A stretch of 64,000 nt of DNA from Minisyncoccia bacterium (lineage in GTDB: Bacteria > Patescibacteriota > Minisyncoccia > Phycocordibacterales > Phycocordibacteraceae). Position numbers and translations under genes: made by a program. This document shows positions 9,267 to 63,915 of this stretch, piece by piece. Position 1 is the stretch's first letter, and each line of letters starts with the position of its first letter. The stretch is from positions 77,530 to 141,529 of the forward strand of contig JBBQZW010000001.1 in assembly GCA_038207395.1 (NCBI GenBank), given 5' to 3'. The notes under the pieces are model-generated. The model was given only the letters and a program-made list of their open reading frames with translations. It was not told where the DNA came from and searched no databases.

Positions 9267-9797
9267 ATGAAGCGCGTTCTCACCATTCTATTTGTGGTTG
9301 TATTTTTTCTCGTATTACTCGGTTTGGTATTATTCAAACTATTTTATACGCCAGAAACAAAAGTTAGTACGCAAGATCAAAAGGATGTTTTTGCTTCAGT
9401 AACAGTTTCAAATGTCCCGGCAATCGATGTATCCCCTGAAGAAATTACACGCCAGTGTTTCACTTCGTATATAAAGTATTACACTTCAGTGGATACCATC
9501 TCATACGAACTAGTTTCAAATAATCCTACTATCCAACGTTGTTTTACTAGTAGTCTAATTGCGTCATGGGAAGAGTCTTATGCAGTTTCAGAAACAGATC
9601 CTATTTTAATATCAGGTGAATATTACGATTCTTGGATAACTCAAATACGAGCCACTGTAGTGAGTCGTCTATCACAAACAAGTTCCGTAGAACTTGTTCT
9701 CGGTACAGGGTCTGAGGAACACCACCTCTTTGTGGGACTTCTATATACAAATACTGGCTGGCACATTAGTTCAGTATCGGCAGGAGAACAATTCTAA
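9267..9797 (+). CDS. hypothetical membrane-anchored protein
   Basis: 176 aa with an N-terminal TM (ILFVVVFFLVLLGLVLF) and an extracytoplasmic remainder. Sits in an AT-richer region, with no recognisable domain. Confidence 0.45.
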   Translation: MKRVLTILFVVVFFLVLLGLVLFKLFYTPETKVSTQDQKDVFASVTVSNVPAIDVSPEEITRQCFTSYIKYYTSVDTISYELVSNNPTIQRCFTSSLIASWEESYAVSETDPILISGEYYDSWITQIRATVVSRLSQTSSVELVLGTGSEEHHLFVGLLYTNTGWHISSVSAGEQF

Positions 9798-9807
9798 GAT
9801 ACACGGA

Positions 9808-10770
9808 CTAGATACTGCAGACTCCTTTGTTTATTGTTATATCCCAGTGTGATGACTCCCGCGCGTATTCGTTACCGCATCTATCTTTATACAATTTAGT
9901 ACCGTCCTTACGGCTTCCTGTTTGGTTTAGTGATTTTAGAAAAGCATCAAGCGCAGCATTAGGCTGCAGGTCAACCTTGTACCCGGTAGAGTGACTGACG
10001 GCACCCGTAGCCTTATGCGTTCCTCCTGTAGTGGAGTTGACTTGGACGGAACAGCCGCATGCTTTTTTAATAGCAATCACTTGGTTTACGGTGTCGGCTC
10101 TTGTATTTGCCATAGTCGCAGTTCCCGAAAACTTCGCAATACTTACGCCTCCAGAAGTTAAGGCACTTCTTGTTTGACTATCATTAAGTACCGTACCAGA
10201 GACTGATCCTGCAGATGGACCTACTGCAGTTGAACCAATATTTTTACCCAAAAGAATATCAATAGTTCCCTCAGCAAGCGAGGTTGGTGCCTTAGCAACG
10301 ATACACCTGTCGCTCTGATCTGCTTTACCACTAATTATAGAGTTCCATGGACCGAAAGAGCCTTCGTCGTACACCGTCTTCATTACGTAATCCACGATGA
10401 GCCACGAAAGGAGGAGTACCGCTAAGCCAATGATTACATTTGTGAGTCTCGTGCGTGCTTTGCTTATGGACTCAGGACTTCCACCACTGGTGAGAAATGA
10501 TAAACCTGCGATAAGCAGATATATCGTGAAAAGAATTATGGCAACAGTAACGGCAAAGTTAATGACGTTTTGAACCGTTTGCATAACGCAGCCAAAATCT
10601 GGTGCAGTTGAAATCGTCCCACCTCCATTTGGATTAGGCTGGTCATTGCAGTGACATTCCTGCGGAACAATAGGACCAAGGAATGTCGGATTTGAAGCTG
10701 CAAACGAGTACTGTGGCATTGCGAGCAGAAGAAGGCTCAAGAATGCTCCTGCTATGACAGTTCGCTTCAT
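9808..10770 (-). CDS. pilin-like 2-TM module (TrbC/VirB2-like) fused to a Cys-containing extracellular domain (paralog A)
   Basis: 320 aa. It has a signal peptide, a CHC..APDFGC Cys cluster, TM1, a charged SKARTR loop, TM2, an IVDYVMKTVY motif and an FGPWNSI motif. This N-terminal ~135-aa module is collinear with ORF 11308-12318 and with the five small ORFs at 24849-26934. The C-terminal ~170 aa have several Cys and no recognised fold. Confidence 0.6.
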   Translation of the reverse strand: MKRTVIAGAFLSLLLLAMPQYSFAASNPTFLGPIVPQECHCNDQPNPNGGGTISTAPDFGCVMQTVQNVINFAVTVAIILFTIYLLIAGLSFLTSGGSPESISKARTRLTNVIIGLAVLLLSWLIVDYVMKTVYDEGSFGPWNSIISGKADQSDRCIVAKAPTSLAEGTIDILLGKNIGSTAVGPSAGSVSGTVLNDSQTRSALTSGGVSIAKFSGTATMANTRADTVNQVIAIKKACGCSVQVNSTTGGTHKATGAVSHSTGYKVDLQPNAALDAFLKSLNQTGSRKDGTKLYKDRCGNEYARESSHWDITINKGVCSI

Positions 10771-10784
10771 GTCACTATTCTAAC

Positions 10785-11300
10785 TTATTGCGGAAGCTTT
10801 ACCGCCCCAGGACAAAAACTGAGTCCTAGATCCTGACCTGCATAGGTTTCATTCACACTAATACTGGTGAAGACTTGCACCTGGAGTTCACAGATCTGAG
10901 TAGTGCTAAGGCCGAGCTTCGCTTTCAATTCCTTTTCAGCAGCGAGCCGAGACGCACCAAGTGGTTCAGCAAGTAGCGATACAAGAAAGCCAGTAGTATT
11001 TGGGTAATAGAGGATTGAGTACGTAGTTTCCTCGTCAGTAGTAACTTGGTATCCATTAGTATCGCTCGCCCACTCTGGTTGCCCTGAGACAATAAATGGC
11101 TGTACCGCGGCGGAAGTTCCGTCTTTGAGTGTTAACGATACCGTCTCCCCTACCGCTACCGGTGTTCCAGTCGCAAAGGTAAAAGGATTATTTACCGGAA
11201 TGGCTTCAGGCGCAGGAGTAGGGAAAACGAAGATGCGTATTAGTGCTCCAATCACCAGTAGCGTGAGAATGATTGAAGAGAGTACTAGAAGTCGTTTCAT
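10785..11300 (-). CDS. hypothetical membrane-anchored/secreted protein
   Basis: 171 aa with an N-terminal TM/signal (LLVLSSIILTLLVIGALIRIF). Sits between the two pilin-like fusion genes. Confidence 0.5.
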   Translation of the reverse strand: MKRLLVLSSIILTLLVIGALIRIFVFPTPAPEAIPVNNPFTFATGTPVAVGETVSLTLKDGTSAAVQPFIVSGQPEWASDTNGYQVTTDEETTYSILYYPNTTGFLVSLLAEPLGASRLAAEKELKAKLGLSTTQICELQVQVFTSISVNETYAGQDLGLSFCPGAVKLPQ

Positions 11301-11307
11301 ACAGAAA

Positions 11308-12318
11308 TTATTTAAAGGGCACGCTACATTTATTTGATGAATATGACCACGGCTGAAAGCCTCTCGAATTAAATAACTTGCATGCCTCTGCAGTATTGTA
11401 CGTGGGATTCTGTGCGGCCTTCACGCATGAATTATACAATTCTTGATCTTTAACTGAGGCCGTACACCACCCTGGATGTGATTTTCCTACCAGCGCACTT
11501 CCCTGGCATGCGGTGGTAAACGCTGCCGGACAGTTTAAGCCCGCTACTTTACTTGTCGTTAGGTTTATCTGCCACAATCCAACCGAGTAACTTGGGCCCT
11601 TACCGCTGTTCAAAAGATCCGACCCAGATTTAATTGAAGAATTGCCGCCGGCACTTTCAAGATTACATACACGAGCAGCTTCGTTCGCGCGAGCTCCAAA
11701 GCAGGTACCCTGTAGTGCTGAAACAGAACAGGCGCCGTTGTTAGGAACTGAGCATGACCCTCCACCTCCTGTACCATTTCCAAACTGCGCGCTTGGAGAA
11801 CTTCCTGCTTCACCGAGTTTTAGTGGGATAGTACCGGTTGCAAGCGGTGATGGATCATGTTCTTTAATACATTCATCTCCAGGAGTCGGTGAAAGTATCG
11901 AGTTCCATGGACCAAATACCGTTCCTTCAAATGCAGTATCAGGGTTGTATACGGTCTTCAGTACAAAGTCGACAATTATCCACGAGCTGAGTATGACCGC
12001 AATACCAATGACGGCATTAAATATTCGTGTACGTGCCTTTGAAAGTGCTTCGGGATTTCCTTGACCAAGCATTAGTGAAAACCCAGCAATGATAATCCAA
12101 ATGACACTAAGAATAATGCCGAACTCTACCGCAGCATTAATTACGTTTTGTAACACTTGGAGAATACATCCGTAGTCAGGAGCAGATCCTGGGCAGTAGC
12201 AGGTACTACCGAGTTGAGGAACGATAGGGTTGGTTGCTCCAAAGGCAATGTACGGAAGGGTAAGGATTAAGAATCCAAACGCAGCTGCAGTGTAGGGTGC
12301 CAAGGGGAAACGCGTCAT
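11308..12318 (-). CDS. pilin-like 2-TM module fused to an Rpf/lytic-transglycosylase-like domain (paralog B)
   Basis: 336 aa. The N-terminal module is paralogous to 9808-10770 (CYC..APDYGC, SKARTR loop, IVDFVLKTVY, FGPWNSI). The C-terminal region (..CNLESAGGN..YSVGLWQIN..GFQPWSYSSNKC) matches the Rpf/transglycosylase-like signature (CESGGNW..GL(Y)Q..W..C), including the catalytic Glu. Confidence 0.6.
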   Translation of the reverse strand: MTRFPLAPYTAAAFGFLILTLPYIAFGATNPIVPQLGSTCYCPGSAPDYGCILQVLQNVINAAVEFGIILSVIWIIIAGFSLMLGQGNPEALSKARTRIFNAVIGIAVILSSWIIVDFVLKTVYNPDTAFEGTVFGPWNSILSPTPGDECIKEHDPSPLATGTIPLKLGEAGSSPSAQFGNGTGGGGSCSVPNNGACSVSALQGTCFGARANEAARVCNLESAGGNSSIKSGSDLLNSGKGPSYSVGLWQINLTTSKVAGLNCPAAFTTACQGSALVGKSHPGWCTASVKDQELYNSCVKAAQNPTYNTAEACKLFNSRGFQPWSYSSNKCSVPFK

Positions 12319-13208: not shown

Positions 13209-13679
13209 TTAGCTAGCTTGGTCCCGCATCGCGAGCTTCACGATGATCTCCGCGTCTTCACGCGAAAGCGACTTGATTTGCTCTGCGAGCTCTTGGAGTG
13301 ACAGTAGGATTAGATTCTGACGCTCATGGAATTCGATGAAGAGCGCGCCATAGAACGCTGGCTGGGATCGCCATTGCGTACTCGACGAACTGAGGAGCTG
13401 ATCGCAGAACTGTTCGAAGGTATAGCCCCTAACGACCGGCCGTCTCAATACGAGACTTGGATCTGATTTTTTGTATTTAATGTCATCGAACAAATAGTTC
13501 GTCATCTGATCACCACGTAGGTGGGCATGCCAAACAGTCTCCAGGTGCGCGAGACAATATTGGACATCCTGTACGATATCCAACGAGTCACTTTGCTGCG
13601 GAACCGCGCCCAGCAGCGATTCCGTTTGCGGGGTCTTCCGACCCCCAAACGTAGGACGAATAACATTATCTTCTGACAC
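13209..13679 (-). CDS. hypothetical protein
   Basis: 156-aa ORF convergent with 12639-13055. No recognisable domain. Confidence 0.4.
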   Translation of the reverse strand: MSEDNVIRPTFGGRKTPQTESLLGAVPQQSDSLDIVQDVQYCLAHLETVWHAHLRGDQMTNYLFDDIKYKKSDPSLVLRRPVVRGYTFEQFCDQLLSSSSTQWRSQPAFYGALFIEFHERQNLILLSLQELAEQIKSLSREDAEIIVKLAMRDQAS

Positions 13680-26110: not shown

Positions 26111-26437
26111 TTAGGTGTTAAAACTTCCGAGAATGCCGAGCATTACGCGCACAAATCCCCACACCGCAAAGAGTGCTACAAAACCGATAATTCCGTATAT
26201 AGCAAAATACTTCCCCTTTTCTCGATTTTCAGGGTTTGCTGAAAAGAAAAGTCGCACCATGCCGATGAGAAATACGATAAATGAGAGTGCATATAGGAGC
26301 GTGATAATAGTGTTCCCAAAAGGCACTACTTGCGTGTCAACAATTTCTTTAAAGGATTTTGCGTAGGTAGTCACTGGGATCAGTGCTGCTGACACGACGG
26401 GCAATGCGCCAAGTGAAAGATTCGATATCCTACTCAT
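26111..26437 (-). CDS. small 2-TM pilin-like protein, paralog 4 of 5
   Basis: 108 aa with TM1, the loop SANPENREKGK and TM2 (..VWGFV). Confidence 0.55.
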   Translation of the reverse strand: MSRISNLSLGALPVVSAALIPVTTYAKSFKEIVDTQVVPFGNTIITLLYALSFIVFLIGMVRLFFSANPENREKGKYFAIYGIIGFVALFAVWGFVRVMLGILGSFNT

Positions 26438-26934
26438 GGTCGTAGCGAGGTAACGGTTGAAGTAATTACTTCTTTGATGGCTGCAGCTCCAAGGATTATC
26501 AGCCCTCCAATAATCGTGAACATGAGTGCTCTTCGTGCCTTACTAATATTTTCTTCATTACCTCGTGCAGCAACGAATAGAAAACCCGTATAGATAAGTG
26601 CGAGCGTAAGAATGATGCTTCCGAGCTCAATAGCGGCAGCTAGCAGACCGTCGAGTAGTTCATTAAGTGAATTGAATTTGAGTGGATTTGCAAGCCTACC
26701 AGCATTTGAGGTTTCTCCCTGGTCTGTTGGATTATTGTTAGTTACTCCTTGCCCAGTTGGAGAGCCTATATTTCCATTAGTAGAAGGAGTGTTTGAGATT
26801 CCTCCTTTACCATTTTCCGCATGAGTCACTGTGGGCAAAGAACTTATACTTACGCCTAGGGTAAGAAGTACCGCAATTGTTAGGCCGGCAATCTTTGTTA
26901 CAAGATGTGCAGATCGATAATTAGAATGAGGCAT
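26434..26934 (-). CDS. small 2-TM pilin-like protein, paralog 5 of 5, with a Gly/Asn/Thr-rich N-terminal extension
   Basis: 166 aa with a signal/TM, a low-complexity G/N/T-rich spacer, TM1, the loop ARGNEENISKARR and TM2. The SKAR loop matches the loops of the large paralogs A and B. Overlaps the upstream SBP-like gene by a few nucleotides. Confidence 0.55.
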   Translation of the reverse strand: MPHSNYRSAHLVTKIAGLTIAVLLTLGVSISSLPTVTHAENGKGGISNTPSTNGNIGSPTGQGVTNNNPTDQGETSNAGRLANPLKFNSLNELLDGLLAAAIELGSIILTLALIYTGFLFVAARGNEENISKARRALMFTIIGGLIILGAAAIKEVITSTVTSLRP

Positions 26935-28210
26935 TGATAGCTTGGTTAGCGGCGTCGAGTGCTTGCCCTACTGCACTACGTCCGCTCGTTATACTACTAA
27001 TCATAGTACTGAAGATGCGGTCAGTCGTTGCTGGTGATGGGGATAGCCACCCTTTTGCAATAAGTGCTTGTGGGTAATATACCGGAGCGTACCGGTCATT
27101 ATTAGCAGGCGTAAGAGCAGCACGCGTTGCAGGCGCCATAAAGAGAGTCTGTGAGACTACGGGCGCATAGGCGGTATCAGCAAGCGCAAATGCCACCGCC
27201 ACTGCTCCAGCGGCATTAGTTGAGGCTTTTGGCACCGAGAAAGCATATGCCTTTGCGTACGTTACTTTTTGTGCACTTGTCTGCGGCTGGGGTATGGCTG
27301 TCATATCAAAATCCAGGTTTGGATTCGAGGCTTTAAGGAATGGGAGCTCTGACGCAAAACCAGGATAGAAGACTAAACTGCCTGCAATAAATGCCTGACG
27401 TGCAGAGGGAATGGCACGGTTCCAGGAATACACCGTACGTGCAGGGTCAGCGAATTGAGTATAAAAACTCAGCGCTGACTGAGCTGGAGACGTCTTAGAA
27501 GTGCTTGTACCCCCTTCATTAAGGGTTGCTCGGAGACCATTAGTGCTTACTCCGGTAATGGTACTTCCGGCCTGGAGGAGAAGGAGCGAGACAGCCGCAC
27601 GTGCATTCTCAACATTCTCATACACTCCAAACGGCACCGTACTTTGAGAAACAGTCCCTCCAGACGTACGGGAGAGCTGCTCTGCAAGGCTAGTCACCGC
27701 TTCCCAGGATGTTGGCGGAGATGCGATACCTGCAGAGGTAAGAATACTGCGGTTGTAATACAACACGAGCGGATCAACGGTAAACGGCACTCCATACGTT
27801 CCATTAGCAGCTAAGAAGAGTTCGTCTATAGGAAGATAGGTATTTAAATACGTACGCTCAGAAATAGTTGAGAACGGTATGACTGAAAGCTTATTCTGCT
27901 GTGTTACTAATTCCTCTTGAGAGACAAGGATGAGATCGGGGCCATTGCCTGCGGCAATGGCCTGCGCAAGATCAACATCAAACGTATTCTCCGACTTCTC
28001 CTGGTAACTTACCCCTTGATACTCTTGGTTTGAAGAGCGAAGCGTATTTAAGATCTGCTCCATACTACTTTGTGGAAGTGTCCCCCAGATCGTAACTGCC
28101 CCAACCTTTGTACTAGCACTTCCAAAGCCTCCAAAATTTGAGAACAGCACAAGCCCAAGCACAATAAGAAAGCCGAAGATGGCGAGAAGTATGATCTGGA
28201 ACGGTTTCAT
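26921..28210 (-). CDS. extracellular solute-binding protein family 1-like (membrane-anchored, orphan)
   Basis: 429 aa with an N-terminal TM anchor followed by ..VGAVTIWGTLPQ..GVSYQEK..GNGPDLILVSQEEL..YGVPFTVDPLVLYYNRSIL.., collinear with sugar-type ABC SBP_bac_1. No permease or ATPase genes are nearby. Co-oriented and tightly spaced with the pilin array. Confidence 0.55.
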   Translation of the reverse strand: MKPFQIILLAIFGFLIVLGLVLFSNFGGFGSASTKVGAVTIWGTLPQSSMEQILNTLRSSNQEYQGVSYQEKSENTFDVDLAQAIAAGNGPDLILVSQEELVTQQNKLSVIPFSTISERTYLNTYLPIDELFLAANGTYGVPFTVDPLVLYYNRSILTSAGIASPPTSWEAVTSLAEQLSRTSGGTVSQSTVPFGVYENVENARAAVSLLLLQAGSTITGVSTNGLRATLNEGGTSTSKTSPAQSALSFYTQFADPARTVYSWNRAIPSARQAFIAGSLVFYPGFASELPFLKASNPNLDFDMTAIPQPQTSAQKVTYAKAYAFSVPKASTNAAGAVAVAFALADTAYAPVVSQTLFMAPATRAALTPANNDRYAPVYYPQALIAKGWLSPSPATTDRIFSTMISSITSGRSAVGQALDAANQAINASF

Positions 28211-31935: not shown

Positions 31936-32577
31936 TTAAGAGCTTATTACTATGATAGCACCATCTTTATCTGCAACGTCTTTCTTCTTGAGCGTAAGTT
32001 TGTCCACTTTTTCAGCTTCTCCACCCTCTTCCTTAAGAAACGCTTCTAGTGCTTTTGGCTCACCCATTCCACTCCAGTGCATGGGAATAATTATTTTTGG
32101 TTCAAGCATCGTGGCAAGCTTGCTCGCTTCCGCCGCATCAAGAACGCCGTCTCCTCCAACCGGTACAAAAAGTACGTCAATCTCATCAATCGCTTCTTTT
32201 GCGTTTGCAGGAAGTGTTGTTCCGGACATTGCGCCAAGATGTACGAGCGTCATTCCTTCAAGCTTGACGGAGTATATTGTGTTCACTGCTTCAGTCTGTC
32301 CCTTCCCAAGCGCATATTCACTTTTCGTTAGAAAACCTTGAATAGTCACCCCTTCTTTCTCATATTCACCAGGTCCGTTAATCACGAAAGGGTCCTTCCC
32401 TCCAAATGAAACTTCACTCGTTCCATTCATATCAGGATGATTACGGGACACAAGAGCAATATCAGCACCAAAGCGAACAGGAGGAAGCGTGCCTGACTTT
32501 GAGATTGGATCAAAAACCAAGGTAAAGTCGCCAAAGGTGACTTTGAAGCACTGTCCTGCGTGATGCGTAATAACCAT
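31936..32577 (-). CDS. metallo-beta-lactamase-fold metal-dependent hydrolase
   Basis: 213 aa (MVITHHAGQCFKV..DIALVSRNHPDM..IIIPMHW) with the small UPF0173-like MBL-fold pattern. Confidence 0.65.
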   Translation of the reverse strand: MVITHHAGQCFKVTFGDFTLVFDPISKSGTLPPVRFGADIALVSRNHPDMNGTSEVSFGGKDPFVINGPGEYEKEGVTIQGFLTKSEYALGKGQTEAVNTIYSVKLEGMTLVHLGAMSGTTLPANAKEAIDEIDVLFVPVGGDGVLDAAEASKLATMLEPKIIIPMHWSGMGEPKALEAFLKEEGGEAEKVDKLTLKKKDVADKDGAIIVISS

Positions 32578-32760
32578 GTTCTCTATATTCTACCATTTCT
32601 CCCCATACCTGTCGCTTTCATGAACAGATAAAATCACTGTCCCCACCTACCCTCTAGTACTTGACAATATTTTGTGTGTGTGATAACTTTATTTTTGTTA
32701 GGCCTGCGTAATTCGTACGTAGGAACGATCCTGACATGATCAATGAAAAGGAGAATTGCT

Positions 32761-33075
32761 ATGCGGAATCTTCGCATATTCGCAATCGCGGCGCTCGCAT
32801 GCACCGCGCTCTCGACGCCGGCGTTCGCGACCGAACACATCGACCCGGGGCGCTCGGTGAATAATCTCGATTCGAACAACATCTCGGCCGACAACCGCGC
32901 GACCACGCTGGTCGGCGCGCTGAACACGCAACCGATGTCGAACGACTCGCCGACCGCGACGCGCCCGGAGGTGCGTATGCTCCCTGCTGGCTCGTTGTCG
33001 GCTTCGAACGGCATGTACACATTGGGCGCAGATCGTCTCAACTCGAACGGCAATGCCGGCGGCGCGCTGACCTGA
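32761..33075 (+). CDS. small secreted protein encoded in a high-GC mini-island
   Basis: 104 aa with an AAAGGAG RBS 7 nt upstream and a signal peptide (MRNLRIFAIAALACTALSTPAFA). The mature part is Asn/Ser/Ala/Gly-rich. The segment is roughly 65% GC with a strong G/C third-position bias, unlike the flanks. A TTGACA -35 lies about 75 nt upstream and a hairpin terminator downstream. Confidence 0.5.
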   Translation: MRNLRIFAIAALACTALSTPAFATEHIDPGRSVNNLDSNNISADNRATTLVGALNTQPMSNDSPTATRPEVRMLPAGSLSASNGMYTLGADRLNSNGNAGGALT

Positions 33076-33121
33076 CCGGTCGGCCGCGGCTATAAACGAA
33101 CCAGGCGTTTCCTGGTAACAA

Positions 33122-33166
33122 TGGGCCCGACTATGACAAAAGCAGATGCTTTGTCTGGTCGGGCCC
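33122..33166 (+). terminator. hairpin terminator after the GC-rich gene
   Basis: GGGCCCGAC (33122-33130) pairs with GTCGGGCCC (33158-33166) around a 27-nt loop, followed by TAACTATTTTCT. Confidence 0.4.
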
Positions 33167-33263
33167 TAACTATTTTCTAACGTAATTATCTTATACACTT
33201 CCTTCATCTGATGGTCAGCGTTAGGATAGTGTCTGGCGCTCATGCCAAAAAGGAGTAACCGTA

Positions 33264-33446
33264 ATGAGTGATAGTGATCTTTCAACCACAAATGCATCCG
33301 CCACAAACGAAGAGTCTGGACAGAATTCGCCACGAATTCTGTTCCCGGGTCAGTTCCGATTATTCGACCCAATGGTCGATGTTCCAGAGAATCAAATCTG
33401 TTTTGATGGCTTTGATGAGCACTTGTGTGGTGGTGGATACAATTAG
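33264..33446 (+). CDS. small acidic hypothetical protein (60 aa)
   Basis: AAAAGGAG RBS 8 nt upstream of the ATG. Acidic and Ser/Thr-rich, and followed directly by a rho-independent terminator. Confidence 0.4.
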   Translation: MSDSDLSTTNASATNEESGQNSPRILFPGQFRLFDPMVDVPENQICFDGFDEHLCGGGYN

Positions 33447-33466
33447 GGTATCCAAAGATATGAAAA

Positions 33467-33497
33467 TGGGTGGGTCCTTTGGACCCACCTTTTACTA
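33467..33497 (+). terminator. rho-independent terminator
   Basis: Hairpin GGGTGGGTCC-ttt-GGACCCACC followed by TTTTACTATTATTTT. Confidence 0.65.
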
Positions 33498-33659
33498 TTA
33501 TTTTATGAGATATCTTTCTTTTTACGCTGTTTATGGTACATTTCCGGTATCGCGAGGGCGTATATAAGCCGCGAGCAGGCTATCCCTGGTTACCGGTTTC
33601 TTTGATTAAAGGAACCTGGCCAGTACCTGCCGCGTACCACGCCCCGTTTCATTTATTAT

Positions 33660-34802
33660 ATGCATGAAGAAACTTCTGCAGAAACTCCGGTTGCTGCACC
33701 AGTCCCCCTTTCCTTTACGCTTGATGCAAGCCACCCAATGGCGAAGCACCTTGATGCAATAAAGAACCCGCCTCTGGCTGGGGACGTTGTTGAAGGAACT
33801 ATTATTGAACTCGTTCGTGGACGCCTTTATGTAGATCTTCCTCCATGGGGATCCGGTATCATTTATGGTCGCGAATACCTCAACGCTGCCGACGTTCTCC
33901 GAAAGGTGAATCCAGGAGACACTATCACGGCAAAGGTTGTTGATCCCGCTGGTATTGATGGCTACATCGAACTTTCTCTCAAGGAAGCTCGCCAGGCAGC
34001 TATCTGGGGCGAAGCTGAAGCTGCTATTCTTAACGCCAACACCTTCAACCTTACCGTTGAAGAAGCTAACAAAGGTGGCCTCATCCTTTCGTGGCAGGGT
34101 ATCAAAGGATTCCTTCCCGCATCCCAGCTCTCGAAGGATCACTATCCACGCGTTCCTGAGGGAGACAAAGATAAGATCTTTGGTGAACTTCTAAAACTCC
34201 AGGGTACTCAGCTTGCCGTTCGTATCATCACTGCTGACGCGAAGGAAGGTAAGCTCATCTTCTCAGAGAAGAGTGGTGAAGAAGAGACGGAAAAGACAAA
34301 TCTTATTGATAAGTACCAGGTTGGCGATGTTGCACTTGGTGAAGTGACTGGAGCCGTTGACTTTGGCGTCTTCGTTAAACTTGAGCAGGGTCTTGAAGGA
34401 CTCGTTCACATTAGTGAACTTGACTGGGGACTCGTTGAAGATCCTCGTACCATGTACACCGTAGGTGACCGTGTTGAGGTGAAGGTTATCGAAATCAAAG
34501 AAGGTAAGGTTTCTCTCTCAATCAAGGCACTTAAGGACAATCCTTGGAAGACCGCTTCTGAGCAGTACAAGAAAGGTCAGGAAGTTACGGGTGTCATCAT
34601 TAAGTACAACAAGCACGGAGCACTCGCTTCTATCGAAGAAGGTGTTGCAGGACTCGTTCACATTAGTGAATTTGCCACCCCTGCAGAACTTCGTGAGACC
34701 CTTGAACTTGGTAAGACGTACCCATTCACAATCACGCTCTTTGAGCCTAAGGATCAGCGTATGACCCTTACGTTCACTGGGCCAAAGGGAGCGAAGAAAT
34801 AA
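33660..34802 (+). CDS. rpsA: 30S ribosomal protein S1 (four S1 domains)
   Basis: 380 aa with repeated S1 OB-fold motifs (GDVVEGTIIEL.., GFLPASQLS.., GDVALGEVTGAVDFGVFVKL.., GQEVTGVIIKYNKHGALASI..). Confidence 0.85.
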   Translation: MHEETSAETPVAAPVPLSFTLDASHPMAKHLDAIKNPPLAGDVVEGTIIELVRGRLYVDLPPWGSGIIYGREYLNAADVLRKVNPGDTITAKVVDPAGIDGYIELSLKEARQAAIWGEAEAAILNANTFNLTVEEANKGGLILSWQGIKGFLPASQLSKDHYPRVPEGDKDKIFGELLKLQGTQLAVRIITADAKEGKLIFSEKSGEEETEKTNLIDKYQVGDVALGEVTGAVDFGVFVKLEQGLEGLVHISELDWGLVEDPRTMYTVGDRVEVKVIEIKEGKVSLSIKALKDNPWKTASEQYKKGQEVTGVIIKYNKHGALASIEEGVAGLVHISEFATPAELRETLELGKTYPFTITLFEPKDQRMTLTFTGPKGAKK

Positions 34803-34826: not shown

Positions 34827-34856
34827 GGGCCCCGCTTGCTACGCAAGCGGGGCCCT
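34827..34856. terminator. bidirectional hairpin terminator
   Basis: AGGGCCCCGCTTGC-ta-GCAAGCGGGGCCCT between convergent rpsA and ORF 34855-35625. Confidence 0.6.
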
Positions 34857-35625
34857 AGCCGTTTACCTTAACTGGGTAGCTCATGTCGTTTTCATCGACT
34901 GGCACCCATTCAAAATAATGATTTGTTTTAGGTTCATGGTATCCAGCAGGATTGAAGTACTCATCAGGCATGGCCCAAATGAAATGCTCCAGCCGATTTC
35001 TCGTAAGAGTCCCCGGATACCGCTTCGTCCATCGAACATCAGGGAGTGAGGGTAGTGCCCTCTCACACACCGACATCTCTTTTATGTCTTGTACCATTGG
35101 GTAGTCAGACATCGGAAAAAGATGTGGTGAGATAAGATGTTCAGGCGAAGGATGAAGGGTTAGTTCTTGCTGAAGTGCGCGAATCGCAGCCTGCAAAAAC
35201 GTTTCGTGCACAAGATTTCGTTTCTCACTCATAGAGTTACGGTAGGTCCTGCGCACCGCTTCATTTCCTTCAAGATGGTATTCGCGAAGCCACTTTTTAC
35301 TAATATGTCGCGGATTCAGTAGCGTCGGCTGATGAACATTTGCCGTGACATACAGCGTAGCGGTTTCAATGTCTCGCAGAATATATTTTGTACCCTGGTA
35401 CTCAATGACACTCAGGACACATTCGTGTTCTCGAAACTCTTTTAGAAGTACCGCTACGGACTTAGAGCCTTTCGCTGTTCCCCACTCTCTAAATCCTGGA
35501 ACATATAGCTCCAGAAATATGAGCAGACTCTCTTCAGAATCAATACGCAATGGCTCTTCTGAGAGATTGAATAGCTCGTGTAATACATGTATAAGCCCTT
35601 CAGGAAGGGCGTTCATGGTGGTCAT
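34855..35625 (-). CDS. hypothetical cytoplasmic protein
   Basis: 256-aa ORF with no TM segments and no motif I can assign. Wedged between rpsA and pth. Confidence 0.45.
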   Translation of the reverse strand: MTTMNALPEGLIHVLHELFNLSEEPLRIDSEESLLIFLELYVPGFREWGTAKGSKSVAVLLKEFREHECVLSVIEYQGTKYILRDIETATLYVTANVHQPTLLNPRHISKKWLREYHLEGNEAVRRTYRNSMSEKRNLVHETFLQAAIRALQQELTLHPSPEHLISPHLFPMSDYPMVQDIKEMSVCERALPSLPDVRWTKRYPGTLTRNRLEHFIWAMPDEYFNPAGYHEPKTNHYFEWVPVDENDMSYPVKVNG

Positions 35626-36481: not shown

Positions 36482-37033
36482 ATGAAGCTCTTAGGAAGCG
36501 CGCTAAAAGAGATTGCGATCTTCCTTGTTCTGGCCGTTATCATCGTCCTCCCCATCCGTTTGTTCGTTGCACAACCATTCGTTGTTGAAGGCGAAAGCAT
36601 GCACCCTACATTTGAAAGTGGCGACTACCTCATCGTTGATGAACTTTCATATCACTTTCACGAACCTCGCCGCGGTGATGTCGTCGTATTTCGCTACCCT
36701 GGTGATCCAAAAGTCTTTTATATAAAGCGCGTTATCGGACTTCCGGGCGAAACTATTAGCATTACTGAAGGGAAAGTAACTATTACAAAAGAAGATGGTA
36801 CAAGCGTGACTCTTTCTGAATCATATGTTGTTAACGAAGACGCCACGTACACACAAAGCACACACATAGGCGCAGGTGAACTCTTTGTTATGGGAGATAA
36901 CCGTCCAAAAAGTTCTGACTCGCGCGTATGGGGACTCCTTCCTGAAAAGAATATTATTGGCCATGCCTTCGTCCGACTCTTCCCTGCGAATGAATTCGGA
37001 CTTAATCCTGGCGCAACCACCCAACCACAATGA
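36482..37033 (+). CDS. lepB: signal peptidase I
   Basis: 183 aa with an N-terminal TM, the catalytic Ser box (GESMHPTF), the Lys box (YIKRVIGLPGE) and the GDNRPKSSDSRVWG box. Confidence 0.85.
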   Translation: MKLLGSALKEIAIFLVLAVIIVLPIRLFVAQPFVVEGESMHPTFESGDYLIVDELSYHFHEPRRGDVVVFRYPGDPKVFYIKRVIGLPGETISITEGKVTITKEDGTSVTLSESYVVNEDATYTQSTHIGAGELFVMGDNRPKSSDSRVWGLLPEKNIIGHAFVRLFPANEFGLNPGATTQPQ

Positions 37034-48144: not shown

Positions 48145-48232
48145 TGGCGGAGGCGGAGAGATTTGAACTCTCGATGCCTTGCGACATGCCGGTTTTCGAA
48201 ACCGGTGGAATAAACCACTATCCGACGCCTCC
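48145..48232 (-). tRNA. tRNA-Ser (anticodon CGA)
   Basis: Acceptor GGAGGCG/CGCCTCC, anticodon arm CCGGT-TTCGAAA-ACCGG, long variable arm and T arm GAGAG-TTCAAAT-CTCTC. CCA is encoded. Confidence 0.75.
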
Positions 48233-55797: not shown

Positions 55798-56346
55798 TTA
55801 TATCGCTGACTTTACAGTAAAGGTAAAACGGTACGCACCTAGCTCAGGAGCTCCTGACATACGACGCTCTGGATCAACTGACTCAAAGCTGATGTTTGTT
55901 CCAAATATCGTCATCGATTTTCCTAGATCAATGGTACGTGTCTCACTGGTACCCATTCCACTTACGCGTAACGAAAGAGAAACCGTTCCTGCTTGTATAC
56001 AGCGAACGTCCACAGGACAGCGACTATCCGTAAGAATAGCGACTGGACGAATAGATACTGCATTTTTAAAACCAGCTACTTGGTTTAATGACAGAGTCGT
56101 CGAACCGTAAGGATAGTAGTGCGTTACACCCGTTGAGGTCGGCTTGGGGCCAGTTCCTTCCGAGTATGTTTCTGACTGACTTGAAGTAGGAGTGGTGGAT
56201 GGCTCTGAAACGGGAGAGGTGCTTGTTGCAAGACCATCAGTACGGAGCACCGGTGCCTCAGGTGACTGAGTTATGATAAGTCCAATGGCGATAATAAGCA
56301 CAATACCCAGGATTGTACCCGGGAAAATAAATTCTTTCTTGTCCAT
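55798..56346 (-). CDS. membrane-anchored exported protein (hypothetical)
   Basis: Start trimmed to the Met of MDKKEFIFPGTILGIVLIIAIGLIITQ, a TM anchor. Followed by a Ser/Thr/Pro-rich linker and a beta-rich domain. Confidence 0.45.
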   Translation of the reverse strand: MDKKEFIFPGTILGIVLIIAIGLIITQSPEAPVLRTDGLATSTSPVSEPSTTPTSSQSETYSEGTGPKPTSTGVTHYYPYGSTTLSLNQVAGFKNAVSIRPVAILTDSRCPVDVRCIQAGTVSLSLRVSGMGTSETRTIDLGKSMTIFGTNISFESVDPERRMSGAPELGAYRFTFTVKSAI

Positions 56347-56426
56347 ACCTACAGTATACCTGGCATTTCCAGCCCGTAAAATAGGAGACTCGAGAAACTT
56401 ATTTCTCTTAAACCTCCTAAACAAAG

Positions 56427-60862: not shown

Positions 60863-63295
60863 TTACTTAGTTAGCGCTGGCGTGGCTACTGGTGCCTTAC
60901 CGTCACTAACGGTTGTCTGAGGAATTCCTAACTGACCCTGGCGCGCAGGAGGAAAGGGATTCTTTCCAATCTTAAGAAGCGCGATATCAGCCTCCACCGC
61001 TTTTGCGTTCTCTGCTGAAATATTAGAGATTGCCGTTAGCTGATCGAGAGCTTGAGGGAACTGACCCTTATTTGCATACCCTACCGCAAGGAAGAATCGT
61101 GCATTTGAGTACTGCGTATTCTGCTGGACAGCAGCACTAAGGGCAGCAATTGCTCCGTCCGTATTTCCTGTTCCAAGTCGAAGAATACCTACCTGGAAGA
61201 GAACGTTTGGATCGTTAGGAGCGAAGTACAGTGCAGCTTCAGCTGCCTGCAATGCTTCCTTTGCCTTACCTTCCTGAACCTGAAGCTGTGAGAGGAGGAG
61301 CGTTGCCTGTGTGTAATCACGCTTCAATCCTATAGCCTTAGTAAGCTCTGCTTCCGCAGCTGCTCCGTTACCCTGCGCAATTTCAAGCTGTGCAAGAGCA
61401 AATGGAAGCGTTGGGTTTGTTGGGTTAAGCGCTATAGCTTTAGCGTACGCAGCCTTTGCGTTGTCATAAGCTCCCTGAATTTTGAGGGGTACAACAGCCT
61501 GGTACACATTTCCGAGCACTACCCAGTTGCGATAGTTGTTCGGTGCAATCTGTGTGGCAAGCGTTGAGGCCTGGATACCCGTAGAAAGGGCGGCCTGGAA
61601 CTGCTGCTGTGCCTGAGATGCAGAGAGGGTTGTATCGTTCGCTATGGTTTGCATCTGTGAGATGCTTGCCGCAGCTGCTAACTGATAGGCGCGATCAGAA
61701 GGAGCAAACAAGAGTGAACGGTTTATGTCAGCAGATCCCTTTTGAAGGTTCCCTGCATTCAAGCTTTGTACTGCTTGTGCGTAGGCAACACTACCTAAGT
61801 AGCGCTCAACCACTACGTATGCGGCTACCACTGAAGCTAGGAGCAAAAGAGTAAGGCCGAATACAATTACGAATCCAAGTCGTGGATTACGGCTGAAGAT
61901 AATTCCCCATTCACGACGACTTCCGCCGTAGCGAAGTGAAGATACGAACAATCCAGCCAAGAAGAATCCTGAGACAAGCACTACGGGGCCAGGATTGGTT
62001 GCAAGCGCAAGGACCAGTACGTAACTTGCTCCTACGAATGAGGCAATTGATACGAATCGAGCGTACGACTCTTCAGGAGCACGGAAGAGAAGCGTACGGA
62101 TACCAATGAAGAAGAACAAGCCAAGGAAGCCGAGCCACGCAAGTAGTCCAACAATACCTGTTGTTATGGCTGATGTTGGAATGACACCAATGCCTGAGGT
62201 GAAATCAATGTTCCAGAAGACCGTATCATTAAGCGTTCGGTCACGGAATGCGAGCCACTGAGAACCAAACGTTCCTGGACCAGATCCGAAGAGTGGTGAG
62301 GATGCGTAGGTGTGACTCCCCACGTCAAACGTAGACTGCCACGATGGACGAACATCAAGATAATTCGTACCGACAGCATTAACGAGTGATGCGCCAATAG
62401 TACTTCCTCCAATAAGGAAGAAGAGAGAGACGACGAGTACTGCAAGAGGCGCAGCAAGATTCTTCGTTTCTGAACTTTGAATCGGTTCTGCATCAAGTGA
62501 TACTTCTGATACTCCGTCGAAATCTTCATCAGCAGACATCGGAGCGCGACGCATGATTGCTTCGATAAAGAGTCCAAGCGCTGTAAGTGCAACAAGTGCC
62601 CAGATAAAACCTGAGTTCACGAGTGCGATAGCAATAAGCGCAATTGCCCCTGTAATCCAAACAAAACGCTTCGTTAGTGTTTTGAGTGAAAGAAAACGGA
62701 GCGCAAGAAGTGAGATGGTAATACCAAGACCTGCAAGCATGCCGAGGTCAGAGAATGTTCCAACTACGTTTGCGGTTGGTGAGAACTTTCCACTTGCAAC
62801 ATGTCCCAAGATAAGGAATACCACCTGGGCAGCAAGTAGGAGTGCGTACACAATACTCGCAACTTTAAAGAAGATGCGGTACTGCGCTGAGCGGCGGAAC
62901 GTAAGCGCAACGATAGTAGCGAATGCAGCGAGAATAACCATGAAGCCAAGAGTGTCGGTTTCAAGTTCAGTACCTAAGAGTCCTGCGCGAAGACCTCCTC
63001 CAGAGAAGAGACTTGAGAGCAGGTATGCTGCAGGCACAAGCCAGAACGCTCCAAGGAGTGTTGCTGGCGGAACGATAATGTTCCCGCGCGTAAGGCGCGC
63101 GAGTATATACAGCGCAAGCGCAATGATGCCGCCAATGGCGACGATTGATACTTTGCTATATATGAACGGGATCGTCGCTGACGGTATAAATGCCAGCGCC
63201 GCGACTGCACCAGTAAGGACTAACGCCCATACGGCGAGTGTGTCGAACGTTACGCGTCGTGGGTTTGACGCTGAGGGGACGGTTTGTATGTCCAT
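60863..63295 (-). CDS. O-antigen-ligase/Wzy-like polytopic membrane protein with C-terminal TPR repeats
   Basis: 810 aa. There are about 12 TM helices in the N-terminal 480 aa, including a large periplasmic-loop region. The C-terminal ~300 aa are TPR-like (..AYDNAKAAYAKAIALNP.., ..LLSQLQVQEGKAKEALQAAEAALYFAPNDP..). Confidence 0.45.
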   Translation of the reverse strand: MDIQTVPSASNPRRVTFDTLAVWALVLTGAVAALAFIPSATIPFIYSKVSIVAIGGIIALALYILARLTRGNIIVPPATLLGAFWLVPAAYLLSSLFSGGGLRAGLLGTELETDTLGFMVILAAFATIVALTFRRSAQYRIFFKVASIVYALLLAAQVVFLILGHVASGKFSPTANVVGTFSDLGMLAGLGITISLLALRFLSLKTLTKRFVWITGAIALIAIALVNSGFIWALVALTALGLFIEAIMRRAPMSADEDFDGVSEVSLDAEPIQSSETKNLAAPLAVLVVSLFFLIGGSTIGASLVNAVGTNYLDVRPSWQSTFDVGSHTYASSPLFGSGPGTFGSQWLAFRDRTLNDTVFWNIDFTSGIGVIPTSAITTGIVGLLAWLGFLGLFFFIGIRTLLFRAPEESYARFVSIASFVGASYVLVLALATNPGPVVLVSGFFLAGLFVSSLRYGGSRREWGIIFSRNPRLGFVIVFGLTLLLLASVVAAYVVVERYLGSVAYAQAVQSLNAGNLQKGSADINRSLLFAPSDRAYQLAAAASISQMQTIANDTTLSASQAQQQFQAALSTGIQASTLATQIAPNNYRNWVVLGNVYQAVVPLKIQGAYDNAKAAYAKAIALNPTNPTLPFALAQLEIAQGNGAAAEAELTKAIGLKRDYTQATLLLSQLQVQEGKAKEALQAAEAALYFAPNDPNVLFQVGILRLGTGNTDGAIAALSAAVQQNTQYSNARFFLAVGYANKGQFPQALDQLTAISNISAENAKAVEADIALLKIGKNPFPPARQGQLGIPQTTVSDGKAPVATPALTK

Positions 63296-63501
63296 ATTTT
63301 TACTCCGTTATTACGGGATTAACCCAGATATACATGATGAATTCTTGGCGCTACTTATTTTCGCAATCAAGGCCATACATGCGTATCGACTATTAAGAAC
63401 GCACCTTATTAGTATACGTTGGACGTGCGGTCTGAAGTTGATGTATACGCACGCGGTGTGGATAATAAAAAAGGAAACATACTATATTTGTAAGGCAAAT
63501 G

Positions 63502-63529
63502 AAAAAACCACGCGTGAGCGTGGTTTTTT
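63502..63529. terminator. rho-independent terminator downstream of rnpB
   Basis: AAAAAACCACGCG-tga-GCGTGGTTTTTT. Confidence 0.7.
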
Positions 63530-63537
63530 CATTTGAT

Positions 63538-63915
63538 TGACTGGTACGATAAGCCGAATTCTGTACGAACTACCCCCAAAGGAATCTTTCGTGACGACCA
63601 TCTATCTGGGATGACTGTTACCAGCCACCTCGAGCGGCGCTCATCGTGTAGTGCATTGCTGCAAAACATGAAGCACGGCCTTGCACAGAAGTAAGGATTT
63701 GGCCGTTTCAGCCTGACGTCACCGTCAGGACGCTCTCAAGCCGAGACCTGAGAACACCTAGCTTTTCAGCATCAGTCGTTTCTGTTCGCACCTCGCAGAT
63801 CACTCTGGACGGGAATTACCCGCTACCCTTCTGCTAAAAGCAGAGCTTTTAGCCTGTGTTCGGACTTTCCTCTCCAAGAACGGTGTTCAGGAGCGATCGT
63901 CTGTACCAGTCAGAG
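63538..63915 (-). ncRNA. rnpB: RNase P RNA (bacterial type A)
   Basis: The minus-strand read contains GGAGAGGAAAGTCCGAACACAGG (the P4 strand GGAAAGTCCG..ACAG), GGGTAGCGGGTAATTCCCG, GGTGGCTGGTAACAG and the 3' conserved ACAGAATTCGGCTTA (ACAGAANCCGGCTTA consensus). P1 pairs GACTGGTACAGACG (5') with CGTACCAGTCA (3'). Confidence 0.8.

Follow-up and report, generated by a model that had tools for sequence, protein, structure and literature searches.

Hypervariable allelic-replacement loci, such as those for capsule, O-antigen and the central flagellin region, combine conserved flanks with unrelated or highly diverged content, and prokaryotic accessory or recently acquired genes are, as a rule, AT-richer than the genomes in which they reside. 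Class II microcins represent small Gly/Ser/Asn-rich secreted bacteriocins that are paired with small membrane immunity proteins, and the targets of diversity-generating retroelements (DGRs), which are common in bacteria of the candidate phyla radiation (CPR), are characterized by a variable coding end, a G/C run and a hairpin. In the current study, a GC-rich island was analysed that encodes a 104-aa orphan precursor protein and that is located in a 64,000-nucleotide stretch (referred to here as the window) of contig JBBQZW010000001.1, derived from a Paceibacterota (CPR) bacterium; Paceibacteria are ultra-small members of the CPR. The island lies between the genes for a metallo-β-lactamase (MBL)-fold hydrolase and an S1-domain ribosomal protein. 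Our favoured explanation, held with a confidence somewhat better than even, is that it represents the coding body of one native expression cassette, exchanged between lineages, in a hypervariable slot bordered by these two genes (the MBL–S1 slot).

The window was found to have a G+C content of 47.3% (300-bp windows: mean 0.473, standard deviation 0.036), and its strongest GC outlier across 64 kb is a tract at approximately 32785–33115, with a G+C content of 0.65 as compared with 0.473, corresponding to about +5 standard deviations. The peak of 0.653 (300-bp windows) is located at 32801, and the eight top windows all fall within 32701–32876. An abrupt switch in composition had been placed at about 32755–33110 by an earlier inspection of the letters and open reading frames (ORFs) alone (the sequence-only reading). 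This switch is real, both in the G+C profile and in the G+C content at third codon positions (GC3) of the gene, but the tract, as delimited by 30-bp and 300-bp GC profiles, starts at about 32785, approximately 25 bp inside the ORF, and comprises the ORF body from about codon 9 onwards plus some 40 nt of the 3' untranslated region (UTR). The ORF (32761–33075, plus strand) exhibits G+C contents of 0.55, 0.56 and 0.81 at its first, second and third codon positions, respectively, a strong three-base periodicity which identifies it as coding DNA. Resident genes (n=36, at least 200 aa) display a GC3 of 0.42 ± 0.03 with a maximum of 0.50, and the flanking genes are ordinary in this respect (MBL, 0.37; gyrA, 0.47; S1, 0.44), so that the description of the gene as compositionally foreign between flanks of normal composition holds. 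Its codon choice is equally distinctive: all ten Ser codons are TCG, nine of the 16 Ala codons are GCG, eight of the 12 Asn codons are AAC, and CTC is preferred over CTG for Leu. The likening of this codon usage to that of Actinobacteria in the sequence-only reading is an interpretation rather than something observed. The window also encodes a tRNA-Ser(CGA), which reads only UCG (48145–48232); TCG accounts for 11% of the Ser codons in resident genes, as against 10/10 in the island gene.

Around this gene, the elements of an expression cassette can be read within the MBL–S1 spacer. The predicted sigma-70-type promoter (32661–32689, plus strand) consists of a −35 box TTGACA (32661–32666) and a −10 box TAACTT (32684–32689), separated by a 17-nt spacer that ends in an extended TG (32681–32682). 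Its sequence TTGACAATATTTTGTGTGTGTGATAA corresponds to 32661–32686, and the pattern TTGACAA-N-TGTGATAA occurs a single time in the window, with a chance expectation of 0. A ribosome-binding site (RBS), AAAGGAG, as read from the sequence, is present at 32747–32753, 7 nt upstream of the ATG at 32761. At the other end of the gene, two G/C-only runs (33055–33067 and 33081–33090) flank the stop codon and form a 3' end module (33055–33090) that includes the motif GCGCTGACCTGAC at 33064–33076. This module is followed by a small hairpin, ACCAGG-CGTTT-CCTGGT (33100–33116), and by a long imperfect hairpin (33123–33166, arms GGGCCCGAC and GTCGGGCCC) with a T-rich tail, which together represent a probable intrinsic terminator (33123–33178). 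The 3' region 33076–33182 was calculated to fold at −46 kcal/mol (z=−4.95), and none of 200 shuffled sequences was as stable. The upstream TTGACA, the RBS and the downstream long-stem hairpin had each been pointed out by the sequence-only reading, and all three were recovered here.

Related loci were collected by means of the MBL protein, which yielded 79 genome loci and 80 metagenome loci (159 loci, designated here by L numbers where they need to be told apart). All relatives found in this manner are Paceibacterota/Parcubacteria metagenome-assembled genomes, the best of which shows 87% identity in the MBL protein, and a metagenome search for nearer relatives returned none above 85%. The gene order gyrA–orf122–MBL–spacer–S1 is retained in relatives, with the MBL gene adjoining gyrA and orf122 across the 159 related loci; the length of the MBL–S1 spacer varies from 126 to 2,419 bp, being 1,082 bp in the window. 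The left border of the slot is the MBL gene (31936–32577, minus strand; Pfam Lactamase_B_3, E=4.9e-29), while its right border is the S1 gene (33660–34802, plus strand; Pfam S1, E=2.8e-39), which matches the NCBIfam models for 30S ribosomal protein S1 below their cut-offs. The closest relative, L002, carries two cassettes in tandem and a counterpart of the small downstream gene orf60 (described below); the flanking DNA of the nearest relative is only 79% identical to that of the window.

The GC anomaly was shown to recur at this position. Across a set of 53 non-redundant loci, each 8 kb or longer, the locus-wide GC maximum (the highest 240-bp window) falls in the MBL–S1 spacer in 33, as compared with 5.3 expected from the share of the spacer in the length of the locus (p=2e-20). 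Furthermore, of the 87 loci whose spacer measures 400 bp or more, 38 contain an RBS-preceded spacer ORF that exceeds the flanking genes in GC3 by 0.15 or more, 33 of these 38 GC3-rich ORFs being located on the plus (S1) strand. The GC3 of slot genes is approximately 0.8–0.96 (range over the 38 loci, 0.64–0.96) at a host flank GC3 of 0.44–0.9. Homologues of normal composition in close relatives, which the sequence-only reading had named as counter-evidence, were not encountered; the positional counterparts are equally abnormal in composition. The slot genes fall into several unrelated groups, i.e. signal-peptide proteins (95–137 aa) with abundant D, G, S, T and N, single-pass membrane proteins (78–112 aa), peptides of 40–55 aa, and a large protein of ~350 aa (334–363 aa; GC3 0.73–0.86) with a lysine-rich C-terminus. 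The latter is encoded, in spacer coordinates, at L130 285–1376, L058 785–1375, L101 698–1738 and L015 1058–2062, and its copies in L058 and L130 are 92% identical, as compared with 84% for the MBL genes. Ten slot proteins of relatives, including the ~350-aa protein, gave no Pfam family. In many relatives, a gene for a small single-pass membrane protein is located immediately upstream; the window has no such partner. The suggestion that all small exported proteins are GC3-rich was ruled out by the neighbouring small membrane-protein gene orf122, whose GC3 is 0.05 below that of the flanks. The anomaly is specific to the cassettes and is a property of the gene pool of the slot rather than of one event.

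Comparison of close relatives revealed how the content of the slot changes. Between L017 and L099, the MBL and gyrA genes are 93% identical, and both cassettes have promoters, 5' UTRs and terminators with 95–100% identity, whereas the ORF bodies are ~38% identical, which corresponds to the random level, with one pair encoding 109 and 44 aa. Similarity is lost at two points: on the 5' side immediately past the −10 box or start codon, and on the 3' side at the stop codon. Since ORFs are scrambled beside intact promoters in genomes that are 7% apart, replacement rather than point mutation is indicated. This pair exhibits the conserved frame with unrelated content by which hypervariable loci are recognized, and the promoter and 3' motifs that the window has in common with its relatives suggest the same state for the window. 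Furthermore, the similarity of slot content was found to be incongruent with genome phylogeny for L017 and L028, whose signal-peptide genes are 87% identical, as compared with 78.5% for the MBL genes of the same pair. The proportion of synonymous differences (pS) in this slot gene is 0.10, versus 0.68–0.72 in MBL and gyrA (0.68–0.80 over four flanking genes), while the proportion of non-synonymous differences (pN) is 0.12, with a ratio of non-synonymous to synonymous substitution rates (dN/dS) of ~1.2 and changes at all codon positions. As estimated from codon frequencies, two sequences drawn independently under one biased codon table would disagree at ~30–50% of conserved codons, and codon bias therefore cannot hold pS at 0.10. 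The simplest account of these sequence comparisons would be that ORF bodies are replaced by recombination in a conserved frame, with alleles common to different lineages. As a separate observation, the synonymous divergence (dS) of the S1 gene is 0.2–0.5 in pairs of relatives (for example L036/L105 and L045/L034), two- to five-fold below that of MBL, gyrA and orf122 (0.95–2.3); it is low without a shift in GC3, in line with either strong codon constraint or co-transfer of S1 with the slot.

The regulatory frame of the window cassette could be linked to that of its relatives by short non-coding motifs. A relaxed form of the promoter motif was found nine times in the spacers of relatives, on the same strand, and not once in 1.12 Mb outside of these, and the window promoter is 88% identical to that of L058 over 34 nt. 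The 12-mer GCGCTGACCTGA, located at the end of the window ORF, is present elsewhere only in L017 and L028, in both cases just 3' of the signal-peptide genes. G/C-only runs of 10–22 nt were observed 0–8 nt after the stop codon in ~17 slot genes, including that of the window. In addition, L002 has, behind its secreted-protein gene, an exact copy of the 15 nt GGGCCCGACTATGAC that form the 5' arm of the terminator hairpin, a match which by itself is not significant (E=0.23). A further motif, (T)TATTACG[AC]CA[TC]ATCC, precedes the −35 box of the last cassette by ~10 nt in relatives (for example, in window orientation, L017 605–640, L058 1435–1470 and L130 1437–1470). With 14 occurrences in spacers against a single one in the 1.1 Mb beyond them, it is a candidate regulator-binding site; it is absent from the window.

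The product of the island gene bears a canonical Sec signal followed by a low-complexity mature part, as the sequence-only reading had proposed. Residues 1–23 (32761–32829) constitute the signal peptide, with a cleavage site AFA|TE as predicted from the translation; the layout comprises MRNLR (two Arg residues), a 13-residue hydrophobic core IFAIAALACTALS and TPAFA|TE, and so displays the charged n-region, the h-region and the small residues at −3 and −1 that are expected of a predicted Sec/signal peptidase I substrate. The gene for a signal peptidase I lies at a distance of 3.4 kb (36482–37033; Pfam Peptidase_S26, E=2.6e-49). The mature part of 81 aa consists for 68% of N, S, T, G, A, D and P, has a pI of 4.9 and is devoid of Lys, Cys, Trp and Phe. 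AlphaFold (AF2), run on the single sequence, returned a pLDDT of 52 and a pTM of 0.17, low scores which are compatible with disorder, although they prove nothing. A word-indexed search of 5.8 billion proteins retrieved only the protein itself, as encoded on a Logan contig from run SRR19962014, and an exhaustive phmmer search of 1.84 billion proteins retrieved only two repeat proteins (E=1e-4 to 7e-4), which were judged to be compositional matches. No Pfam, NCBIfam or PHROG family was assigned to the protein or to the ORF antisense to it, and the island had no match in plasmid, phage or IMG/VR viral DNA. In searches of the spacers of all relatives with tblastn and phmmer, the best match (E=0.046) was confined to the signal peptide, and an apparent C-terminal likeness to the slot proteins of L004 and L002 was discarded as not significant by BLASTP.

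According to our favoured reading, the MBL–S1 slot, which is present throughout a clade of Paceibacterota, offers a native, conserved frame, consisting of a slot-specific sigma-70-type promoter, a 5' UTR with RBS, a stop-codon module (G/C run plus CTGACCTGA) and a hairpin terminator. The coding body within this frame would be replaceable, such that lineages trade divergent or unrelated alleles through homologous recombination, which would take place in the conserved regulatory sequences to either side and in the bordering core genes, and the allele pool would be strongly GC3-rich (0.8–0.96) at any composition of the recipient. The window copy, with a GC3 of 0.81 in a genome with a GC3 of 0.42, would be one such allele. 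Its coding body has very probably not been resident in this genome for long, and its donor would most likely be a higher-GC member of the same clade rather than of another phylum. When the synonymous codon choice of the island was scored (log2 likelihood) under the codon tables of high-GC Paceibacteria, pooled slot genes and the own genome, values of −146, −155 and −201, respectively, were obtained, the first table outperforming the own genome by 55 bits in this comparison of three tables; preferences for CTC over CTG, for TCG and for GCG are common to the island and high-GC Paceibacteria. This fit makes import from a higher-GC clade member plausible for the window copy. Once transcribed and translated, the 104-aa precursor would be a Sec export substrate, and cleavage by signal peptidase I behind AFA (residue 23) would release an 81-aa acidic, Asn/Ser/Thr/Gly/Ala-rich protein without a confidently predicted fold. 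This product would probably function on the cell surface or extracellularly, where it would help to recognize hosts, phages or competitors and would be subject to diversifying selection.

Several points weigh against this interpretation. No homologue of the window protein was found in relatives, and the membership of the window gene in the slot family rests on position, architecture and short non-coding motifs, of which two (the 15-mer and the 12-mer) are individually weak; the element ATTACGMCAYAT, present before the promoter in 14 relatives, is absent from the window. With the nearest flanking DNA so diverged, no sharp replacement breakpoints can be shown in the window itself. The GC3 of the pool (~0.9) is above that of nearly all sampled hosts, and import from high-GC relatives is for this reason not a full explanation. 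Moreover, L039, L045 and L034, with a host GC3 of 0.44–0.47, share a peptide gene with a GC3 of 0.84–0.91 and a nearly invariant 3' half. This gene has apparently been kept through speciation, which suggests that an active force is at work in addition to recent import. Finally, the expression, secretion and function of the cassette are predictions from sequence. The sequence comparisons do show the composition, the anatomy of the gene, the integrity of the junctions, the conservation of the slot, the recurrence of the anomaly and the exchange of ORF bodies in close relatives, whereas transcription, export and cleavage, the donor, the agent of selection and the cause of the GC-rich pool are inferred. 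The active force that probably contributes may be selection on the mRNAs of the slot or a conversion bias confined to mismatched allele bodies.

Two alternatives survive best, although each is considered unlikely. The first is vertical inheritance, with GC-ending codons being kept by selection on the slot genes only, for which the candidate causes are mRNA stability or structure, the kinetics with which exported proteins are translated, or a function at the nucleic-acid level that overlaps the ORF. It can draw on the persistence of high GC3 in L039, L045 and L034, where invariance of the 3' half extends to synonymous sites, on codon choice that is codon-specific rather than directed at plain G+C (GGC 84% versus GGG 4%), on the exclusive use of TCG for the ten Ser codons of the window gene in a genome that encodes tRNA-Ser(CGA), and on low synonymous divergence with a dN/dS of ~1. 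However, none of the 36 window genes exceeds a GC3 of 0.50, and the highly expressed S1 gene exhibits a reduced dS without any GC3 excess. A pS of 0.10 implies recent common ancestry rather than constraint, given that independent draws would differ far more, and ORF bodies that are wholly different between 93%-identical genomes are at odds with descent in place. Expression-linked codon bias, as a candidate in its own right, was regarded as unlikely in view of the GC3 difference between S1 and gyrA (mean −0.007 over 83 loci) and the reduced dS of S1.

The second of these alternatives, no more probable than the first, is that of a dedicated diversification locus beside S1, in which ORF bodies would be exchanged or regenerated in fixed frames, an active GC-directed process, whether conversion bias or selection, would hold GC3 at ~0.9 irrespective of a genome GC3 of 0.44–0.9, and the G/C run plus hairpin might serve as a recombination signal. 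If true, it would imply a pool of accessory genes that is GC-rich, contrary to the AT-rich rule, and would provide a natural test of what sets bacterial GC content.

GC-biased gene conversion, by which divergent alleles recombine, heteroduplex mismatches arise only in the ORF body and GC-biased repair lifts GC3, is judged still less probable. The slot is demonstrably recombinogenic, the GC enrichment is confined to the variable part, and a recombination-associated rise of GC3 has reportedly been described in bacteria. Nevertheless, the ends of the MBL and S1 genes that adjoin the spacer show no GC3 rise, the non-coding UTRs within the cassettes are not GC-rich, and the strong avoidance of GGG and CGG is unexpected under a pure weak-to-strong (AT-to-GC) bias. 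A regional form of such conversion was rejected on account of the lack of a GC3 gradient into the flanks.

The idea that a gene for a secreted effector was transferred once and recently from a remote high-GC donor (Actinobacteria, Burkholderiales or the host of the symbiont), which is close to what the sequence-only reading had considered simplest, appears improbable. It would account for a GC3 of 0.81 versus 0.42 with NCG-rich codon usage, for the orphan status of the protein and for an insertion in a slot that tolerates insertions. The promoter and 3' motifs are native, however, and the same anomaly occupies the same slot in dozens of relatives; no homologue was retrieved from 5.8 billion or 1.84 billion proteins, nor any plasmid, phage or viral match; the slot borders carry no mobility genes, tRNA gene or direct repeats; and the preference for CTC over CTG is that of high-GC Paceibacteria. 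The proposal that the gene was imported once, from Actinobacteria or some other remote lineage of high GC, is therefore not supported.

There is very little to recommend the view that the gene is the target of a DGR located elsewhere in the genome, with the G/C run and hairpin as homing signal. The anatomy is reminiscent of such targets, in that the variable 3' part of the coding region leads into 10–22 nt of G/C only at the stop codon and then into a hairpin, and the product is Asn-rich with AAC in eight of 12 cases. A Pfam scan of the 64-kb window detected no reverse transcriptase in the ORFs that it covered, all of them 150 aa or longer, a set that lies outside the ORFs 13209–13679, 55798–56424 and 62553–63536 and the intervals 12.3–14.7 kb and 24.8–26.4 kb. 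No template-like repeat of the island was found in the window, nor any for 52 of the 54 slot genes within their own loci (at most 16.6 kb each), and these loci of relatives likewise yielded no reverse transcriptase. Moreover, the differences between L017 and L028 affect all codon positions and are not adenine-specific, and whole ORFs, not just 3' segments, differ between close relatives. Two further candidates were rejected. An integron gene cassette is not consistent with a hairpin (33123–33166) without attC cores (RYYYAAC...GTTRRRY), with the absence of a tyrosine recombinase from this same set of scanned ORFs, or with a promoter for each cassette. A structured non-coding RNA finds no Rfam match (gathering threshold or E ≤ 5) and does not fit the codon periodicity of 0.55, 0.56 and 0.81.

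The idea of an assembly chimera, in which Paceibacteria DNA was fused to a fragment of a GC-rich organism, and which the sequence-only reading had kept as its alternative, has the abrupt change of composition in its favour and can be dismissed almost entirely, as an independent de Bruijn assembly (Logan contig SRR19962014_3481560; 1,510 bp) is 100% identical to window positions 32260–33769, spans both junctions and runs from the end of the MBL gene through the island and orf60 to the start of S1 with the same joins; the 5' switch from low to high GC falls within an intact signal-peptide coding sequence, which makes a random join unlikely; the GC-rich part contains motifs of the Paceibacteria slot; and the feature recurs in relatives from many unrelated samples.

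ORFs overlapping on both strands, as remarked in the sequence-only reading, are present in the ORF list; the antisense ORF of 139 aa (32634–33053, minus strand) is taken to be a by-product of high GC3, because it shares the third codon positions of the sense ORF, lacks an RBS and enters, and indeed extends through, the sense promoter. A second small slot gene, orf60 (33264–33490, plus strand; GC3 0.41), encodes an acidic 60-aa protein (MSDSDL...LFDPM...) and has its own RBS and a terminator at 33468–33490; its counterpart by position in L002 reads MSDTEND...LFDPM. Neither orf60 nor orf122 was assigned to a family in Pfam, NCBIfam or PHROGs. Upstream of S1, a conserved non-coding element (33511–33646, plus strand; blastn) forms the right anchor of the slot and is the best-conserved part of the spacer, aligning with the spacers of more than 30 relatives (L002, 79.5% over 132 nt; shorter matches, 71–96%). 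It probably represents the S1 promoter or an (autoregulatory) leader; no Rfam family was assigned to it, and a weak L20_leader match (E=0.34) lies on the opposite strand.

In the wider window, Pfam identified the housekeeping genes for SerRS, DprA, TopA, RelA/SpoT, ParB, MiaA, ClpB, IF-2, GyrA, S1, Pth, LepB, FtsA, FtsZ, TsaD, LepA and MurJ, in addition to a class I aminoacyl-tRNA synthetase (PF00133). The second-highest GC stretch, at the left edge (26–400; 0.57–0.59 in 300-bp windows), overlaps the 3' end of the seryl-tRNA synthetase gene and the DNA beyond, and gave no Rfam match at the gathering threshold. Directly 3' of S1, an ORF of 256 aa (34855–35625) without a Pfam, NCBIfam or PHROG match has only matches of 25–30% identity, in four of the 159 related loci, and marks another poorly conserved position. 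Type IV secretion pilin (PF18895/TrbC-like) proteins are encoded at 9808–10770, 11308–12318 and 26434–26934, beside ORFs without a family match (9267–9797, 10785–11300 and 26921–28210). Eleven tRNA genes are scattered across the window, and a bacterial class A RNase P RNA (117.8 bits) is located at 63534–63912 on the minus strand.

Across dozens of CPR species, the slot harbours fast-turnover genes for small exported proteins that are far GC-richer than their hosts and of a similar level everywhere. If the favoured reading is correct, the slot would provide a compact natural system in which selection, biased conversion and transfer can be separated as causes of GC3, as well as candidate surface or secreted molecules for the interactions of Paceibacteria with their hosts, and an atypical GC island would by itself be no proof of import from a distant phylum.

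Targeted full-text searches of the literature returned no description of such a slot, and its resemblance to known systems is partial in each case. With DGR targets it shares a variable coding sequence followed by a G/C-only run and a hairpin, but neither a reverse transcriptase nor a template repeat nor an adenine-specific pattern was found in the sequences scanned. Class II microcins may offer an analogy in their ~100-aa precursors, acidic-to-neutral mature parts of small residues and hypervariable alleles, and possibly in the small membrane-protein gene that lies upstream in many relatives. The slot gene differs from them in having a Sec signal peptide instead of a double-glycine leader and in showing no sequence similarity, there are no exporter or modification genes, and the window lacks the membrane-protein partner. 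Horizontally acquired islets likewise display a sharp GC/GC3 deviation, an orphan product and housekeeping neighbours, whereas the present island is without mobility genes, a tRNA target or border repeats, is set in a native regulatory frame and represents an anomaly that recurs at one position clade-wide. The closest match is provided by the allelic-replacement loci, with which the slot has in common conserved flanks around unrelated or highly diverged content, similarity that is incongruent with the genome tree, atypical composition and diversifying selection as the presumed driver. In contrast to the multi-gene clusters exchanged at such loci, the unit here is one small ORF body (40–140 aa, sometimes ~350 aa), the host belongs to the CPR, and the content is GC-richer than the genome where accessory DNA is usually AT-rich. 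Relative to these loci, the unusual aspects are a content GC-richer than that of the hosts and the swapping of single ORF bodies inside fixed frames.

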